This document shows, in pieces, positions 23,576-30,159 of a DNA stretch of 64,000 nt. The notes below the pieces were generated by a model that saw only the letters and a program-made list of their open reading frames with translations, was not told the origin of the DNA and ran no database searches. Source of the DNA: an uncultured Oscillospiraceae bacterium (GTDB lineage: Bacteria; Bacillota; Clostridia; Christensenellales; CAG-314); contig CAZHMU010000009.1 of the NCBI GenBank assembly GCA_964533825.1, positions 1,168 to 65,167 of the forward strand, written 5' to 3'. A program made the translations under genes and the position numbers. Every line of letters starts with the position of its first letter. Position 1 is the stretch's first letter.

Positions 23576-23884
23576 ATGAAAACATTAGGAGAAAGAATAA
23601 CCATATTATTAAACGAAAAACACATATTGCAAAAAGATCTTGCCATTATGATTGGTGTGACTGAATCTGCATTGTCAAGATATATTAACAACGAACGAGA
23701 ACCCAAAATAGAAGTTTTGGCAAATCTTGCAACTGCGTTGGAAACAACCGTTGACTACTTGACTACTGGTAAAAAACCAGAAACAGATTTTGATGAAATC
23801 TATCGTTTGGTTGCAAGAAGCTCCTACAGCTTGACAGAATCACAAAAAATGCAAATTATTGAGGCGGTAATGCGTAACAAATGA
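23576..23884 (+). CDS. XRE-family helix-turn-helix transcriptional regulator
   Basis: RBS AAGGGGAAAAGCAG before the ATG. HTH_3 pattern LGERITILLNEKHILQKDLAIMIGVTESALSRYINNEREP. Confidence 0.9.
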   Translation: MKTLGERITILLNEKHILQKDLAIMIGVTESALSRYINNEREPKIEVLANLATALETTVDYLTTGKKPETDFDEIYRLVARSSYSLTESQKMQIIEAVMRNK

Positions 23885-24447
23885 TAGATACAGCTCGTGT
23901 AAACCCATCAAAAATACCATCGTGGATGTATGATGAAATCGAAAGAAAAGTGGTTGACTTATACAAAGAACAAGGAATAACGGAAGTACCAATAAACCCT
24001 TTCGAAATTATCAAAAAAAGAGGATACATATTGGTTCCATTTTCAAAGCTTCAAAATACTTTTTTATCTGGAAAGGATGGCGATAAACACGATGCCTTAT
24101 CCTTTTTCGTTCCAGAGCTTCAAAGATATGTAATAGCTTATAACGATGAAAAGCCATTACCACGTCTTCGTTTTACACTTATGCATGAAATTGCTCACAT
24201 TGATTTGGGTCACAGGGGGGAAAGTGACTTGGCAAGACGTATGGCAGACTATTACGCAGGGTATGCTTTGGCGCCATCCCCATTGATAGGCCTTTTTACA
24301 AGCGGAAGCAAAACGGAAATTCAAACTAAATTTGAGGTATCCAATGAGTGTGCTGAAGTTTCTCAAAATAGGTACTACAAATGGTCCGTCTATGGCGGTA
24401 ATAATTACAAGGATTATGAACTTGTTTTACTAAATTTATTTAATTAA
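23881..24447 (+). CDS. ImmA/IrrE-family zinc metallopeptidase
   Basis: ATGA overlap with the XRE gene. HEXXH motif in TLMHEIAHIDLGH. Classic XRE+ImmA pairing. Confidence 0.85.
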   Translation: MIDTARVNPSKIPSWMYDEIERKVVDLYKEQGITEVPINPFEIIKKRGYILVPFSKLQNTFLSGKDGDKHDALSFFVPELQRYVIAYNDEKPLPRLRFTLMHEIAHIDLGHRGESDLARRMADYYAGYALAPSPLIGLFTSGSKTEIQTKFEVSNECAEVSQNRYYKWSVYGGNNYKDYELVLLNLFN

Positions 24448-24518
24448 ATAACAAAATTCTTTAACAAAAAAGAAAAGCACCTAACAGTTGCTACCAACAA
24501 CTGTTAAGTGCCTATCAG

Positions 24519-24537
24519 GAAATGTGTTACACATTTC
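24519..24537. promoter_or_regulatory. Inverted repeat upstream of the DUF4417 gene
   Basis: GAAATGTG-TTA-CACATTTC. It follows a second hairpin GCACCTAACAGTTG...CAACTGTTAAGTGC at about 24477-24511. Confidence 0.35.
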
Positions 24538-24633: not shown

Positions 24634-25302
24634 ATGGACACTCTTTTTACCATACCCAAAATGGCACAAAAAGACGTTTTTAACTCGTTTTTAGTTACAA
24701 ACGCGACGTATGACGGTGAAGACGAAATTCCCGTTATCAAAACAAGTAACCTTATTCCCGAAAAGGTTATTTCCTTTTCAAAAGCCAAAAGTAAACAAGA
24801 CTACAATGCTTGGGTTCATTTTTACCAGTGTGATAGTGAAATTGAGCGCTTTTGGAGAAATCCACAGAAGTATTTGCCAATGCTAAAAAGGCACAAAGGA
24901 GTTATTTCTCCAGATTATAGTTTGTACTATGATATGCCTTTATGTATGCAAAAGTACAATACATATCGTGGTAAAGCACTTGCGCATTGGCTAATAGAAA
25001 ATGGTGTAGAAGTAATACCCAACGTTCGGTGGGGAGATGAGCGTACCTTTGATACTGCCTGTCTTGGTGTTGAACCTAACAAGACCATTGCCGTAGGTAC
25101 CCATGGTTGTATCAAGACAGTCGAAGGAAAAAGGATGTTTATTGCTGGCTTTGACTATGTAGTAAACAAACTTACTCCCCAAAGGATAGTAGTTTACGGA
25201 CGTATGCCGGACAAAATCTTTTGCTTGGCAAGGATGTATGGCGTAGAACTAATTCCATTTGAAAGCGAATTTGGCTTAACCCACAAAAAGGGGGTGAGCT
25301 GA
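24634..25302 (+). CDS. DUF4417-domain protein
   Basis: RBS CAGGAGGTGTTAT before the ATG. 222 aa. Pattern WVHFYQCDSEIERFW...ISPDYSLYYDMP...NTYRGKALAHWL..GVEVIPNVRWGDERTF is remembered as DUF4417. Confidence 0.65.
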   Translation: MDTLFTIPKMAQKDVFNSFLVTNATYDGEDEIPVIKTSNLIPEKVISFSKAKSKQDYNAWVHFYQCDSEIERFWRNPQKYLPMLKRHKGVISPDYSLYYDMPLCMQKYNTYRGKALAHWLIENGVEVIPNVRWGDERTFDTACLGVEPNKTIAVGTHGCIKTVEGKRMFIAGFDYVVNKLTPQRIVVYGRMPDKIFCLARMYGVELIPFESEFGLTHKKGVS

Positions 25303-25332
25303 TATGGGAGCTGGATATCATGGCGGATTTGG
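25230..25332 (+). repeat. Direct repeat copy A (DUF4417 3' end + stop + first 10 codons of the next ORF)
   Basis: Aligns with 26304-26405 with about 7 differences by eye, including one 1-nt indel in an A5G5/A5G4 tract. Confidence 0.9.
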
Positions 25333-25735
25333 TAATACTGCTGGAGAAAATAAACATAAAAATAATGTTGACACTATTAAAAAGAGTAAAGGTAAATATT
25401 TAGCAAATTTTGGAACTATAGATAGCAATGCAAAAGCAATGAGTTCTATATATCCCATGAAAAATGGATATTTTGGGGTAAAGGGAAAAAACCATAGAGT
25501 TATATATAGTAAAGATCAATATAAAACGGCTTCTGATTTTTATTTGAGAATTTCTCGTGGTGGCAGCGAAAAATCTTTGCCTAATAATAAGGGTAAAATT
25601 AGTTATTTGGAAGATGGCACTAAAATTGTTTACAGACCTAAAACCTCTACTCCAGATAGTCCAGCTGTTGAAATAACTATATATTATCCCAATAGTGTTC
25701 GCGGTCAAAAAATACATTTCTTAAAGGAGGATTAG
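25304..25735 (+). CDS. Variable cassette 1, small basic protein (putative effector/toxin), shared MGAGYHGGFG N-terminus
   Basis: The ATG lies 1 nt after the DUF4417 stop. 143 aa, Lys-rich. The C-terminal region (..IVYRPKTSTPDSPAVEITIYYPNSVRGQKIHF) matches no family I can name. Confidence 0.45.
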   Translation: MGAGYHGGFGNTAGENKHKNNVDTIKKSKGKYLANFGTIDSNAKAMSSIYPMKNGYFGVKGKNHRVIYSKDQYKTASDFYLRISRGGSEKSLPNNKGKISYLEDGTKIVYRPKTSTPDSPAVEITIYYPNSVRGQKIHFLKED

Positions 25736-25737
25736 AG

Positions 25738-26304
25738 GTGATAGAAGCTAAATTTTCAAATGAAATGCTACAGTATTTGGGAAAATTAAATAACTCGTGG
25801 TTTATTAAATACATCACTGATGATGAAACAAGTGGCAATTCAACATATTGCAAGTTAGGGATTGATTCCGATAATGTTTGTTTGGATATATTTAATGAAG
25901 AAACAAATGTTGATTGGTTTGTATCTGGAAATAAGATTCAACAAGAAGACATCTCAGTTTTTTCTTGTGCAATCAGGAATGATGGCGAAAAATTTCAACC
26001 ATATTTGGGCGAATCCCAAATTATTGCTATTGATGTTAATGAAAAAATAGGTAAAGTAGAAATTGTTTCCGATTTGATTGATGTAAATAATGGCGAATAT
26101 ACAATTGACTACGATATGGCAATAATTATAGAAACCGAAAAGCACAAATATATATTCTCTCGCGGATGGTATTTTGATGAAGAAATATATATCAATGTTG
26201 ATAAGAGCATAGATGAAATATATCCAATTCGAGAAGTTCAGGAATCGTGGAGTAATGATGGAGAATTTGTCGTCAAAGTAAGCAGAGTAGTAAAGACAAT
26301 CTAA
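25738..26304 (+). CDS. Variable cassette 1 partner, acidic protein (putative immunity/antidote)
   Basis: GTG start 2 nt after the upstream stop, with AAGGAGG upstream. 188 aa, Asp/Glu-rich, no recognised family. Confidence 0.4.
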   Translation: MIEAKFSNEMLQYLGKLNNSWFIKYITDDETSGNSTYCKLGIDSDNVCLDIFNEETNVDWFVSGNKIQQEDISVFSCAIRNDGEKFQPYLGESQIIAIDVNEKIGKVEIVSDLIDVNNGEYTIDYDMAIIIETEKHKYIFSRGWYFDEEIYINVDKSIDEIYPIREVQESWSNDGEFVVKVSRVVKTI

Positions 26305-26405
26305 AGGATGTATGGCATAGAACTAATTCCGTTTGAAAGCGAATTTGGCTTGACCCACAAAAAGGGGTGAGTTGATATGGGGGCTGGATATCATGGTGGA
26401 TTTGG
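26304..26405 (+). repeat. Direct repeat copy B (orphan DUF4417 3' fragment + start of the cassette 2 ORF)
   Basis: It would encode ..RMYGIELIPFESEFGLTHKKG* against ..RMYGVELIPFESEFGLTHKKGVS* in the intact gene. The substitutions are mostly synonymous. Confidence 0.9.
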
Positions 26406-26799
26406 CAAGACATATGGGGAAAAAAGCAGGCTGAATAATATCAAAAAACCCATTACAAGAGTTGGCGATGTTAGGTATAGCTCAAGAAAGACTGAAGGGT
26501 ACTTGTTGAACATAAATCATCCATATGGTAGTTCTAAGGCAAAATTTATGAGAGATGTTTTGGGCTATTCTGTAGATGATTCAAAACTATTTCACAAAAA
26601 TGTTGTAAAATCGATAATTAACGAGGAACCATACAAGACTATTGAAACGATGTATGGACTAAAACACACATACCATACAGTATTAATTGGTAAAAATGGT
26701 GATAAAGTTACTGCAAATGTGGTAGTGGTAGTGCAGAAAGATAAAAAAAGGGTTACATATAAGATTGTAACTGTATATCCTAACAAAAAGGGGGATTAG
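26377..26799 (+). CDS. Variable cassette 2, DUF6883-like protein with the shared MGAGYHGGFG N-terminus
   Basis: 140 aa. Pattern TEGYLLNINHPYGSSKAKFMRDVLGY...YG.KH...L.G.NG.......VVVQKD....YKIVTVYP is remembered as DUF6883. Confidence 0.5.
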   Translation: MGAGYHGGFGKTYGEKSRLNNIKKPITRVGDVRYSSRKTEGYLLNINHPYGSSKAKFMRDVLGYSVDDSKLFHKNVVKSIINEEPYKTIETMYGLKHTYHTVLIGKNGDKVTANVVVVVQKDKKRVTYKIVTVYPNKKGD

Positions 26800-26801
26800 G
26801 T

Positions 26802-26993
26802 ATGAAAGAATTAGACGTAGTAATGTTAACAGAAAACTTTGAGAATATTCTTGCAGGAACAAAAGGCACTGTCGTTTGCGAATACGATAGAACCGCTTTT
26901 GAAGTTGAGTTCTTCGATAATGATGGGGATACTATTGATGTTGTTACAATTCCAGCTAATTTACTGGTTTTAGTTGAAGAATATAAAATGTAA
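26802..26993 (+). CDS. Variable cassette 2 partner, DUF4926-like small protein
   Basis: RBS AAAGGGGGATTAGGT before the ATG. 63 aa. Pattern D.V.L......L..G..GTVV.......FEVEF.D..G.T..V..IP...L matches my memory of DUF4926. Confidence 0.5.
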   Translation: MKELDVVMLTENFENILAGTKGTVVCEYDRTAFEVEFFDNDGDTIDVVTIPANLLVLVEEYKM

Positions 26994-28278: not shown

Positions 28279-28833
28279 TTAAATTTTCTTAAACACAAAC
28301 AGGTATTCGTGGGCGAGTAGCAAAAAGTTGTATTTTACGCTATTTGTTTTCCAAAAACCTGTTGCTTTGCAATTGTGTTGTTCTTTTATGATTATTTCTT
28401 TTGCTTTGAATCCTGCAAGTTCAAAAATGCGCATTGTTTCAAATGCAAGAGGTTGTACCATGCCATTTTTACGAGTATCGCCCATCAATACAGCACAATA
28501 CTTGCCCTTTTTTAAAACTCTATAGCTTTCCTCGGCAACCTTGCCAATTTCCATCAAAAATGGCTTGATGGATAGTTGTGACAAGTCGCCATCGATACCA
28601 TCGCTGTATTGAATAATATCTGCATAGGGTGGATGTGTGCAAATGAGGTCAACGCTTTCGTCAGGCAAGTCCAATTTGCGAGCATCGCCAAGACGGATGG
28701 AAATATCCACGTTTGAGTCAAACTCAAAATCGCATTTTCTTTGAGAAAGTTCTACAGCGTTAGGATTGATGTCAATGCCAATAAAGTTTCTGCCTGTTAG
28801 CTTTGCTTCAACTGCGGTTGTGCCACCGCCCAC
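28279..28833 (-). CDS. SAM-dependent DNA (N6-A/N4-C) methyltransferase, apparently 5'-truncated
   Basis: Motif I (ILDQF)VGGGTTAVEA..GRNFIGIDINP sits at the very N-terminus and motif IV is CTHPPY. In-frame TAA and TAG lie 6-7 codons upstream of the GTG. No RBS is visible. Related enzymes, as I recall them, carry about 40-60 residues before motif I. Confidence 0.6.
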   Translation of the reverse strand: MGGGTTAVEAKLTGRNFIGIDINPNAVELSQRKCDFEFDSNVDISIRLGDARKLDLPDESVDLICTHPPYADIIQYSDGIDGDLSQLSIKPFLMEIGKVAEESYRVLKKGKYCAVLMGDTRKNGMVQPLAFETMRIFELAGFKAKEIIIKEQHNCKATGFWKTNSVKYNFLLLAHEYLFVFKKI

Positions 28834-28863
28834 AAATTGGTCTAAAATAATCTATTATGATAT

Positions 28864-29193
28864 TTAACTAATCATCTGTTTTAGTTGTTTTAATATTAGA
28901 AAGATGTGATTGCTACATTGGTTTTCTTCGTAATGTTTTTCTTCTTCTGTCCACAAATATTCTACAATCTTTTTAATGTTATTCTTTAGAGACTCATCCA
29001 ATAGTTGCTCTCCTATAATGCAGTTTTCATTAAAGCCGTTTTTTGTTATCCATTGATTATTTTTTAATAGTGAATTAAGCGCATCACCCATATTATGCCC
29101 AGATGCTTGACCTAAAACCTGAAGGTTTTCTACTGGTTGATTAGTTGGACTTTCGGTATAGCCATCTGGTGTGTAAAATATATATCGTTTCAT
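28864..29193 (-). CDS. Hypothetical 109-aa protein in the DpnI-like operon
   Basis: TAATG overlap with the upstream endonuclease gene. No recognised motif. Confidence 0.45.
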   Translation of the reverse strand: MKRYIFYTPDGYTESPTNQPVENLQVLGQASGHNMGDALNSLLKNNQWITKNGFNENCIIGEQLLDESLKNNIKKIVEYLWTEEEKHYEENQCSNHIFLILKQLKQMIS

Positions 29194-29960
29194 TACTTTT
29201 TTCTATAAACCCCGTTTCCTAAGAATTCTATATATCCCTTATCTCGAAGTATTTGAAGCTGTTGGCGTATTTTTGCTTCAACATTTTTATTTTGCGGATG
29301 CAATGTTGATAAAAAATGAGCAAACTTGTATACATCTCCTAATGTGAATAAATCTTGTGGGATTTGATTGATGCAGTTTAGCACATCAATTAACCAACTT
29401 CTTTTATCAATGCTTTCAATATATAATGAATTGCTTCTATTTACGCATCGAACAACATCCAGCGCGCTATTTACTAAGCCGTCCTTTACTATGTCAATTC
29501 GACCTTGTAGCGGTATCTTGTCAATTAAAATATTACACCCTATCCAACCTGCACGGCGAGCAGACTGGGATAAAGGGGCACGAGCTTCAATAACCGATGG
29601 TGTAAAAAAGTGTCTGGGGATTATTATTAAATCCTTTACACGATATTCTATTTTTGAATAGCTCATAAACAAAAAATCAGGGTTTTGATTGCTTGTTATT
29701 CTTGAAATCATAGTTGAGTATGCGCCATCATTAATTTTGTTTCTTATTGGGCCAACTTTGCTTTTTAATTCAAATTGATTATTGCAAGATGGGCAATAAA
29801 AATCAGCTACTGGTCGATTGTTTTCAAAATGCAAAATATGGGTATTTCCACATCTTGGGCAGTACAAATTGTCTAACACCCATTGTTCAGTTAAAACACG
29901 TGCCTTTTGTGTATTGCTATGATATTGATTTGTAATATTAGTATTAAAATCCAAGTTCAT
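29193..29960 (-). CDS. DpnI-family methyl-directed type IIM restriction endonuclease
   Basis: 255 aa. Blocks QKARVLTEQWV..YCPRCG...HFENNRPVADFYCPSC..QFELKS, NDGAYSTM, ARRAGWIGCNI and C-terminal KIRQQLQILRDKGYIEF match my memory of S. pneumoniae DpnI end to end. Confidence 0.8.
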   Translation of the reverse strand: MNLDFNTNITNQYHSNTQKARVLTEQWVLDNLYCPRCGNTHILHFENNRPVADFYCPSCNNQFELKSKVGPIRNKINDGAYSTMISRITSNQNPDFLFMSYSKIEYRVKDLIIIPRHFFTPSVIEARAPLSQSARRAGWIGCNILIDKIPLQGRIDIVKDGLVNSALDVVRCVNRSNSLYIESIDKRSWLIDVLNCINQIPQDLFTLGDVYKFAHFLSTLHPQNKNVEAKIRQQLQILRDKGYIEFLGNGVYRKK

Positions 29961-29961
29961 A

Positions 29962-30159
29962 TTATTGCAGTTTGTCCTTATTTTCTTTTTTTCGTTTATC
30001 TATGGGCTTTTCGGCTGTGCTTGGAATAATCCACATATTGCCAACCATCATTGCACCTTTGATGCGTTCTTCTGAACACAGGATAGCAACTCTTCTTTGA
30101 GAAATATTCCATTTTTGAGCAGCTTCTTTTGCTGACATATAACTAAGCATAGCAATCAC
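29962..30159 (-). CDS. Small helix-turn-helix DNA-binding protein (possible controller)
   Basis: 65 aa. SAKEAAQKWNISQRRVAILCSEERIKGAMMVGNMWIIP is typical of the excisionase/MerR-like HTH_17 type. First gene of the operon. Confidence 0.65.
   Translation of the reverse strand: MIAMLSYMSAKEAAQKWNISQRRVAILCSEERIKGAMMVGNMWIIPSTAEKPIDKRKKENKDKLQ

Follow-up and report, generated by a model that had tools for sequence, protein, structure and literature searches.

What is encoded by two small adjoining genes that directly follow a DUF4417 gene in the genome of an uncultured Oscillospiraceae bacterium, and how do they belong to that gene? Both lie in a stretch of 64,000 nt (GenBank assembly GCA_964533825.1, contig CAZHMU010000009.1, positions 1,168 to 65,167), called the window below, and are referred to as ORF1 (open reading frame 1) and ORF2. 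The original prediction, made from the sequence alone, took them for a pair of the toxin/immunity type. Comparison with other loci bears this out, as ORF1 carries a leader peptide that also stands before at least 12 types of domain, ORF1-type and ORF2-type genes are paired at about 15 loci, and orphan ORF2-type genes occur. We put the probability at roughly 80% that ORF1 encodes a toxin and ORF2 its cognate immunity protein, the two forming one cassette of a polymorphic toxin locus characterised by DUF4417 and this leader.

Two conserved, coupled genes without a known family

The arrangement described in the original prediction is exact: the ATG of ORF1 (25304) lies 1 nt beyond the stop codon of the DUF4417 gene (TGA, 25300-25302), to which ORF1 is translationally coupled, and the GTG of ORF2 (25738) follows the ORF1 stop after a gap of 2 nt, with a Shine-Dalgarno sequence AAGGAGG (25725-25731) inside the end of ORF1. 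The contrast between a small basic protein and a larger acidic partner was confirmed by computation (isoelectric point 9.76 and net charge +12 for ORF1, 4.27 and -19 for ORF2). It was also correct that neither protein has a recognisable family, with no match in Pfam, NCBIfam or PADLOC at E<=1 or in PHROGs below E=0.1. Hydrophobic segments fit for a signal peptide or membrane helix were looked for in both proteins and found in neither.

A word-indexed search of 5.8 billion proteins recovered about 10 close homologues of ORF1 and 9 of ORF2, and two further ORF1 matches in which the similarity is restricted to the first ~20 residues and is followed by complete divergence. The contigs recovered with the homologues all carry genes for an XRE-type helix-turn-helix (HTH) protein, an M78 peptidase, DUF4417, an ORF1-type and an ORF2-type protein in that order, and the insertion sites of the module on the chromosome differ between them. 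Since homologues were recovered (30-98% identity for ORF1, 44-99% for ORF2) and the same gene order is found in many genomes where the context was examined, ORF1 and ORF2 are taken as real genes.

A constant leader before interchangeable domains

A DUF4417 profile scan of one genome per species returned 80 loci, mostly from gut and rumen Clostridia. In roughly 70 cases the ORF adjoining DUF4417 begins with MG[AT]G[YFIL]HGGFGxTxG; it starts 0-5 nt after the DUF4417 gene or overlaps it by 1 nt, the junctions being TAAtATG, TGAtATG and the overlapping TAATG or TGATG. The leader consensus comprises 14 residues, MGxG[YFI]HGGFGxTxG, and the version in ORF1 is MGAGYHGGFGxTxG. Behind the leader stand at least 12 mutually unrelated C-terminal domain families, as judged by BLAST clustering and by hhalign probabilities that are all below 5%. 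The recognised ones include Ntox50 (5e-25), an LHH HNH-type nuclease (1e-30) with a SUKH_5 partner (3e-29), and DUF6883 with DUF4926, a pair found in 7 loci besides the window. Weaker members are PBECR1-like, HExxH and JAB-like. Moreover, the type of the downstream partner is specific to each type of toxin among the DUF4417 loci.

In 64 distinct leader DNA sequences, G2, G4, G7, G8, F9 and G10 are invariant, and each Gly position uses three or all four of the Gly codons. Because the residues are invariant while the codons vary, selection acts on the leader as a peptide and not on the DNA only. A programmed frameshift fusing DUF4417 to ORF1 was also considered and rejected: a stop codon in the ORF1 frame (25295-25297) lies two codons before the ATG, and the form of the junction varies among loci.

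Some loci hold several cassettes. One of them (L004) has three in succession, and the 270-nt repeats between them contain DUF4417 relics of 55 and 80 aa. At another DUF4417 locus (L089, 1505-6431) the toxins have the leader MGAGKSGNFGNTKG and a helical Ala/Gly-rich linker of ~90 aa, part of which is retained in displaced cassettes; one of these is joined to a ParB_N-type domain, and a metallophosphatase gene follows it. Within the same genus, DUF4417 occurs in 7 of 24 other species, of which one has an intact ORF1-type gene and two have an intact ORF2-type gene, so the distribution of the module is patchy.

The genome of the window (G000) has a second complete module on contig C10 (20245-22334; L099 6245-8334, minus strand), with genes for an XRE protein of 106 aa, an M78 peptidase of 189 aa, DUF4417 of 228 aa, a toxin of 123 aa and an immunity-like protein of 92 aa. 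Its toxin has a divergent leader, MREMGRGHCGLFRGTKGSK, and an Ntox50-like end. The module adjoins genes for a serine recombinase, a replication-protein-like product and a cytosine methyltransferase, and by this gene content it probably sits on an integrated mobile element.

Pairing of ORF1-type and ORF2-type genes

All fetched loci were scanned with hidden Markov models of the ORF1, ORF2 and DUF4417 families. An ORF2-type gene lies directly downstream of every ORF1-type gene that has downstream sequence, at about 15 independent loci. The pairing is also kept where the leader is MGGGKGG (L100), where the linker is long (L089), and in L091, which has no DUF4417 inside the fetched 5-kb flanks. 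A metagenome scan gave 5 loci, and a scan of viral contigs with the ORF2 profile gave no match.

ORF2-type genes are also found as orphans. One follows an unrelated cassette in L103, and another lies in a genome of the same genus (G005), in a row of orphan immunity genes together with a truncated remnant of Ntox50. The latter belongs to a DUF4417 locus (L116, G005:C5:98800-103800, minus strand) in which one active cassette is followed by the remnant and four immunity-like genes, one being the orphan and one a paralogue of the immunity gene of the active cassette. In G019 only decayed fragments of ORF1-type and ORF2-type genes are left. Orphan immunity genes would be expected if the toxin arrived from other cells.

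The ORF1 family and its predicted structure

ORF1 consists of the conserved Gly-rich leader MGAGYHGGFGNTAG (residues 1-14), a variable, disordered and Lys-rich linker (15-34) and a compact and basic alpha+beta domain (35-143). When 1.84 billion cluster representatives were searched exhaustively with the ORF1 profile (HMMER), 499 matched at E<=1e-3 and 272 at E<=1e-10, most of them proteins of 120-160 aa. Of the retrieved proteins 77% begin with Met-Gly, including ones with an otherwise diverged leader. No relevant Pfam model was matched by 80 members of the family. Among 123 diverse members the conserved polar residues are N42 (95%), R65 (88%), D104 (95%), R111 (100%), S119 (90%), Q135 (86%), K136 (94%) and H138 (99%), and the hydrophobic or structural positions F57, F79, P120 and F139 are conserved as well. 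The most conserved part of the family is the C-terminal stretch IVYRPKTSTPDSPAVEI...QKIHF, which holds R111, S119, P120, K136, H138 and F139.

The AlphaFold model used here was built from 80 sequences; it replaced a poor model from 9 sequences (mean predicted local distance difference test score, pLDDT, 55.8), for which the Foldseek search was meaningless. Its mean pLDDT is 82.7, with values above 90 over residues 35-143 and below 50 at 5-8 and 18-32. The predicted elements are a helix (39-45), a short hairpin, a strand (65-69), a helix (72-83) and strands at 88-91, 98-101, 107-111, 121-125 and 135-141. Eleven of the top 25 Foldseek matches in PDB are glyoxalase/FosX entries of vicinal oxygen chelate (VOC) type, including 3E5D, with E values of 0.14-0.7 and a root-mean-square deviation of 8-15 Å. 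Given a template modelling score of ~0.2, this resemblance of the model is not significant and is a lead only. It is reported that the toxin sets of the S8 polymorphic toxin systems (S8-PTS) include VOC-like toxins with a conserved Arg-Ser-Lys-Lys set, and 3E5D is cited in the same paper (PMC9424270). As to the BECR fold, the sole Foldseek entry is YafQ at rank 46 with E ~1; hhalign gives a probability of 4.8% for a relation to the DUF6883 family, and neither ORF1 nor the family members match the Pfam BECR models. No relationship to the 11 other leader-linked toxin families was detected by hhalign, and searches of the PDB sequences with alignment profiles of ORF1, ORF2 and DUF4417 gave nothing meaningful. 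The motif 'YR..TST..VEI' was also considered as the R-S-E signature of an ADP-ribosyltransferase and rejected, the spacing being far too short and E123 not being among the residues conserved at 70% or more.

The original prediction had likened the C-terminal segment of ORF1 to the end of nuclease toxin domains. This holds in part: the segment is the conserved core of the family and its Arg/Lys/His/Ser set is compatible with a metal-independent nuclease, but neither a nuclease nor another family could be assigned. Because of the conserved set of Arg, Arg, Lys, His, Asp, Asn and Ser and the cytoplasmic immunity protein, our guess is that the target is cytoplasmic, most plausibly a nucleic acid or nucleotide, with ORF1 acting for example as a metal-independent RNase.

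The ORF1 domain also forms the C-terminal end of some longer proteins. It stands behind a MuF-type N-terminus in P0028 (289 aa; Phage_Mu_F, 2.6e-5) and behind a helical Ala/Gly-rich linker in P0029, P0030 and P0189. In P0183 (202 aa) the first ~95 residues of an HsdM N-terminal domain are fused to an ORF1-type toxin domain, and L100 (1690-3525) has an intact hsdM gene that begins with this HsdM N-terminus; the fusion suggests insertion of a cassette into a gene for type I restriction-modification, or recombination between the two.

The direct repeat, the second cassette and the islet

The window holds a direct repeat of ~120 nt on either side of the ORF1-ORF2 pair, with identities of 95% and 85% over its two halves (Table 1). 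The relic in copy 2 forms a mini-ORF of 20 codons, MYGIELIPFESEFGLTHKKG (26308-26370), which lies 3 nt past the ORF2 stop and 6 nt before the next ATG. Because it bridges these two points, the chain of translational coupling would continue into cassette 2, and copy 2 is likely both a recombination handle and a link in that chain. Cassette 2 encodes a pair that has been described elsewhere: DUF6883 is classified as a BECR-fold RNase toxin (BECR-Tox3), with DUF4926 reported as the partner conserved downstream of it and MuF as often fused to its N-terminus (preprint 10.64898/2026.08.28.747851). There is no terminator-like site between cassettes 1 and 2, and a perfect 17-bp inverted repeat lies beyond cassette 2.

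Table 1. Positions of the genes and repeats of the DUF4417 locus in the window.
Feature	Position	Strand	Description
XRE-type HTH repressor	23576-23884	+	Pfam HTH_3, 2.4e-11
M78/ImmA-type (CapP-like) metallopeptidase	23881-24447	+	Pfam Peptidase_M78, 2.8e-8; PADLOC capP, 4.1e-7
DUF4417 gene, constant upstream partner	24634-25302	+	Pfam PF14386, E=1.2e-58
Direct repeat, copy 1	25230-25350	+	last 73 nt of the DUF4417 gene, junction and first ~15 codons of ORF1; families D1, D2
ORF1, predicted toxin	25304-25735	+	ATG start, 143 aa
ORF2, predicted cognate immunity protein, acidic	25738-26304	+	GTG start, 188 aa
Direct repeat, copy 2	26304-26423	+	relic of the DUF4417 C-terminus and start of the cassette-2 toxin
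Cassette-2 toxin, MGAGYHGGFG start and DUF6883 (BECR-Tox3 RNase-type)	26377-26799	+	Pfam PF21814, E=5.4e-13
Cassette-2 immunity protein, DUF4926	26802-26993	+	Pfam PF16277, E=4.1e-16

The whole locus is a low-GC islet (23.4-27.1 kb), with 31-37% GC vs 45-49% in the flanks. By analogy with known modules, the XRE repressor and the M78 peptidase are predicted to be the regulatory switch of the islet. The same order of genes is also found in L001, L004, L007, L008, L100, G005 and the second module of the window genome. A strong promoter-like site, TTGACA-17-TATTAT, lies upstream of the XRE gene. The 186-nt spacer between the M78 and DUF4417 genes contains an 18-bp hairpin (24475-24513), a 17-bp palindrome, AAATGTGTTACACATTT (~24511-24527), and a weaker promoter-like site. 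On the minus strand of this spacer there is also a strong promoter-like site with a TG (TTGACA-17-TATACT, 24579-24551), facing the hairpin and a T-run; a short RNA of ~75 nt with an antisense or regulatory role could arise from it, or else the XRE protein could have its operator in the palindrome. Elsewhere in the window, the ORF list shows an operon for a DpnI-like endonuclease with a short methyltransferase ORF (28279-30159, minus strand), which makes up a second low-GC islet across upp.

Link to phages

DUF4417 was found in 492 phage records, where packaging or structural genes usually adjoin it, and in the literature it has been treated solely as a domain of unknown function, often fused to ParB in phages. 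In Mycobacterium phage Mulciber (cluster A; L101 367-2362), three genes at the left end of the genome, adjoining tail genes, are annotated as a DUF4417 'nuclease' (gp1), a 'VIP2-like toxin' (gp2) and an 'immunity protein' (gp3), and gp2 has a Gly-rich N-terminus, VKNPSGGGKGGAGGGSS. Furthermore, a human-faecal sequence deposited as a phage (MT835627) contains XRE, M78 and DUF4417 genes, an ORF1-type toxin gene (53% identical) and an ORF2-type gene. Because the DUF4417-toxin-immunity order recurs beside phage structural genes and one sub-threshold MuF-type fusion exists, these data point to delivery of the toxin by a phage-derived route.

Proposed mechanism and alternative explanations

The assignment of ORF1 and ORF2 as toxin and cognate immunity protein is based on several lines of comparative evidence. 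A conserved N-terminal region, the 14-aa leader, which is under selection at the protein level, is shared by many unrelated C-terminal domains, some being recognised toxins with recognised immunity partners. The gene directly downstream covaries strictly with the type of toxin. Orphan ORF2-type genes persist and cassettes are displaced (the window repeat, L004, L103 and G005), with direct repeats and DUF4417 relics lying between cassettes. In addition, the ORF1 domain is C-terminal in longer proteins, the module is patchily distributed and sits in a low-GC islet, and the annotated order in Mulciber is DUF4417, toxin and immunity protein.

In such a system the operon would be transcribed from its own promoter-like site with the palindrome, downstream of the XRE/M78 pair, which would de-repress it upon a stress or DNA-damage signal, as in ImmR/ImmA and CapH/CapP. 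Cassette 2 would be co-transcribed with cassette 1. ORF2, made by translational coupling, would remain in the cytoplasm, where it would bind and neutralise the ORF1 domain in the producer cell, and recombination between the 120-nt repeats could swap the toxin that directly follows DUF4417.

Several results weigh against this assignment. Neither a signal peptide or membrane segment nor a gene for secretion or lysis is present in the islet; the lack of a defined secretion route lowers the claim of a classical exported toxin, not that of a toxin-immunity pair. No catalytic family or fold could be assigned to ORF1 by sequence, profile or structure search. In the structure search, which the original prediction had proposed as a check, the ORF1 model found nothing in PDB or BFVD at E<0.001. 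ORF2-family members match no relevant Pfam model and show no similarity to known immunity families. The MuF-type N-terminus of P0028 scores 25.3 bits, below the Pfam cut-off of 29.6 bits, and that protein is possibly a fragment.

The alternative that survives best, unlikely as we consider it, is an intracellular three-component toxin-antitoxin or abortive-infection module, in which the XRE/M78 pair senses phage or DNA damage and lifts the repression of the operon, the toxin hits its producer, ORF2 is a labile antitoxin and nothing is exported. The absence of a secretion signal or apparatus fits it, as do the resemblance of the M78 protein to CapP, the BECR-type domain of cassette 2 (DUF6883), whose fold also occurs in toxin-antitoxin toxins, and the linkage of XRE and COG2856/M78 pairs to RelE/PIN toxins in predicted three-component systems (PMC2701414). 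However, no toxin-antitoxin modules are known in which a dozen unrelated toxin domains carry one constant leader, nor any with arrays of displaced cassettes and relics of the upstream gene, or with strings of orphan antitoxins and truncated toxins. Moreover, ORF2 has no DNA-binding domain of the kind found in type II antitoxins (no HTH, ribbon-helix-helix or AbrB domain according to Pfam), and ORF1 and ORF2 are part of a longer operon in which they come after DUF4417. The ORF1 domain also ends longer proteins with possible MuF or linker-type N-termini, and several of its sister domains (Ntox50 and LHH with SUKH) are typical of polymorphic toxins acting between cells.

Less probable still is that DUF4417 and the leader load a variable protein into a capsid or particle as phage-type cargo, which acts in the newly entered cell, for example against host defences, with ORF2 as its chaperone or inhibitor. 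The frequent position of DUF4417 beside packaging and structural genes in phage records, the Gly-rich N-terminus of Mulciber gp2 and the sub-threshold MuF-type N-terminus on one ORF1-type domain are in line with it, but the islet has no phage structural genes, the sister cassettes hold bona fide toxin domains and bona fide immunity families, and orphan ORF2-type genes in toxin-free genomes are better explained by protection from an incoming toxin than by a chaperone role. As to the delivery route, this explanation overlaps with that of a toxin/immunity cassette. The last alternative, chance or decaying ORFs without function, might seem to fit the lack of database families but is refuted by conservation (intact ORFs at 30-99% identity in many genomes, with order and coupling kept where examined) and by the confidently modelled ORF1 domain (pLDDT >90), and can be dismissed.

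A bolder idea, which we regard as doubtful, would be that DUF4417, which is enzyme-like and has a Gly-Cys motif that is conserved, recognises the exposed Gly-rich peptide at the N-terminus or modifies it covalently, and thereby loads or releases the payload, for example into capsids or particles. The two would then form an undescribed handling system derived from phages, and the ORF1 domain would be a new toxin fold with a new activity. A hint of such handling is the Met-Gly start seen in 77% of the ORF1-family proteins retrieved, also where the leader has otherwise diverged.

Comparison with known systems

The closest parallels are the polymorphic toxin systems (CdiA-CT/CdiI, Rhs and LXG with the type VII secretion system; Zhang et al. 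2012, PMC3482391), which share with the DUF4417 system a constant N-terminus, variable C-terminal toxins and a specific immunity gene downstream, as well as orphan immunity genes and arrays of displaced cassettes in which part of the constant region is retained as a handle for recombination. The families Ntox50, LHH and SUKH are common to both. Unlike in those systems, the constant part within the toxin is only ~14 residues and the remainder is a separate, coupled DUF4417 gene; neither a domain or apparatus for secretion nor a signal peptide is recognisable, the locus lies behind an XRE/M78 switch, and both a full start codon and a Shine-Dalgarno sequence are retained in the orphan cassette. 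The MuF toxins of temperate phages (Jamet et al. 2017, PMC5576092; Zhang et al. 2012) likewise belong to toxin/immunity modules that are linked to phages and have C-terminal toxins that can be swapped; the ORF1 domain occurs once behind a MuF-type N-terminus (P0028, sub-threshold), and DUF6883 is reported as a frequent MuF fusion. In contrast to them, the DUF4417 system has a separate constant protein and small toxins (113-190 aa), and at the window locus ORF1 has no MuF domain and there are no phage structural genes nearby.

The three-component S8-PTS of Gram-positive bacteria (Li, Tan and Zhang 2022, PMC9424270) likewise have toxin sets rich in BECR RNases and novel folds, but in them a subtilase processes the toxins, which carry a signal peptide as well as a BetaH domain, whereas the ORF1 system has no signal peptide, BetaH domain or S8 peptidase. 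As for the regulatory pair, an HTH repressor followed by an M78-type metallopeptidase also lies upstream of a toxic or defensive payload in ImmR/ImmA of ICEBs1, in CapH/CapP of the anti-phage system CBASS and in predicted three-component toxin-antitoxin systems (Makarova et al. 2009, PMC2701414). The payload in the window is different, consisting of DUF4417 and leader-tagged toxin/immunity cassettes and not of RelE/PIN toxins, CBASS or an integrative and conjugative element, and a switch by cleavage of the repressor is suggested here by analogy.

Implications

We found no description of a DUF4417-leader toxin architecture in the literature, including the accessible part of the 2012 survey of polymorphic toxins. 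The sequence comparisons support ORF1 and ORF2 as representatives of two new families, one of toxins and one of immunity proteins, neither with a Pfam model, in an apparently undescribed architecture linked to DUF4417. Polymorphic toxins shape how the members of dense communities, for example that of the gut, compete. To the toxin domains the ORF1 family would add a large one with hundreds of sequence clusters, and in this architecture, controlled by a switch of repressor and protease, a DUF4417 gene and a 14-residue leader would stand in place of the large secretion domain that is usual elsewhere. If the system were solved, it would give the widespread protein DUF4417 its first role and could show a new way in which toxic proteins are passed from cell to cell.

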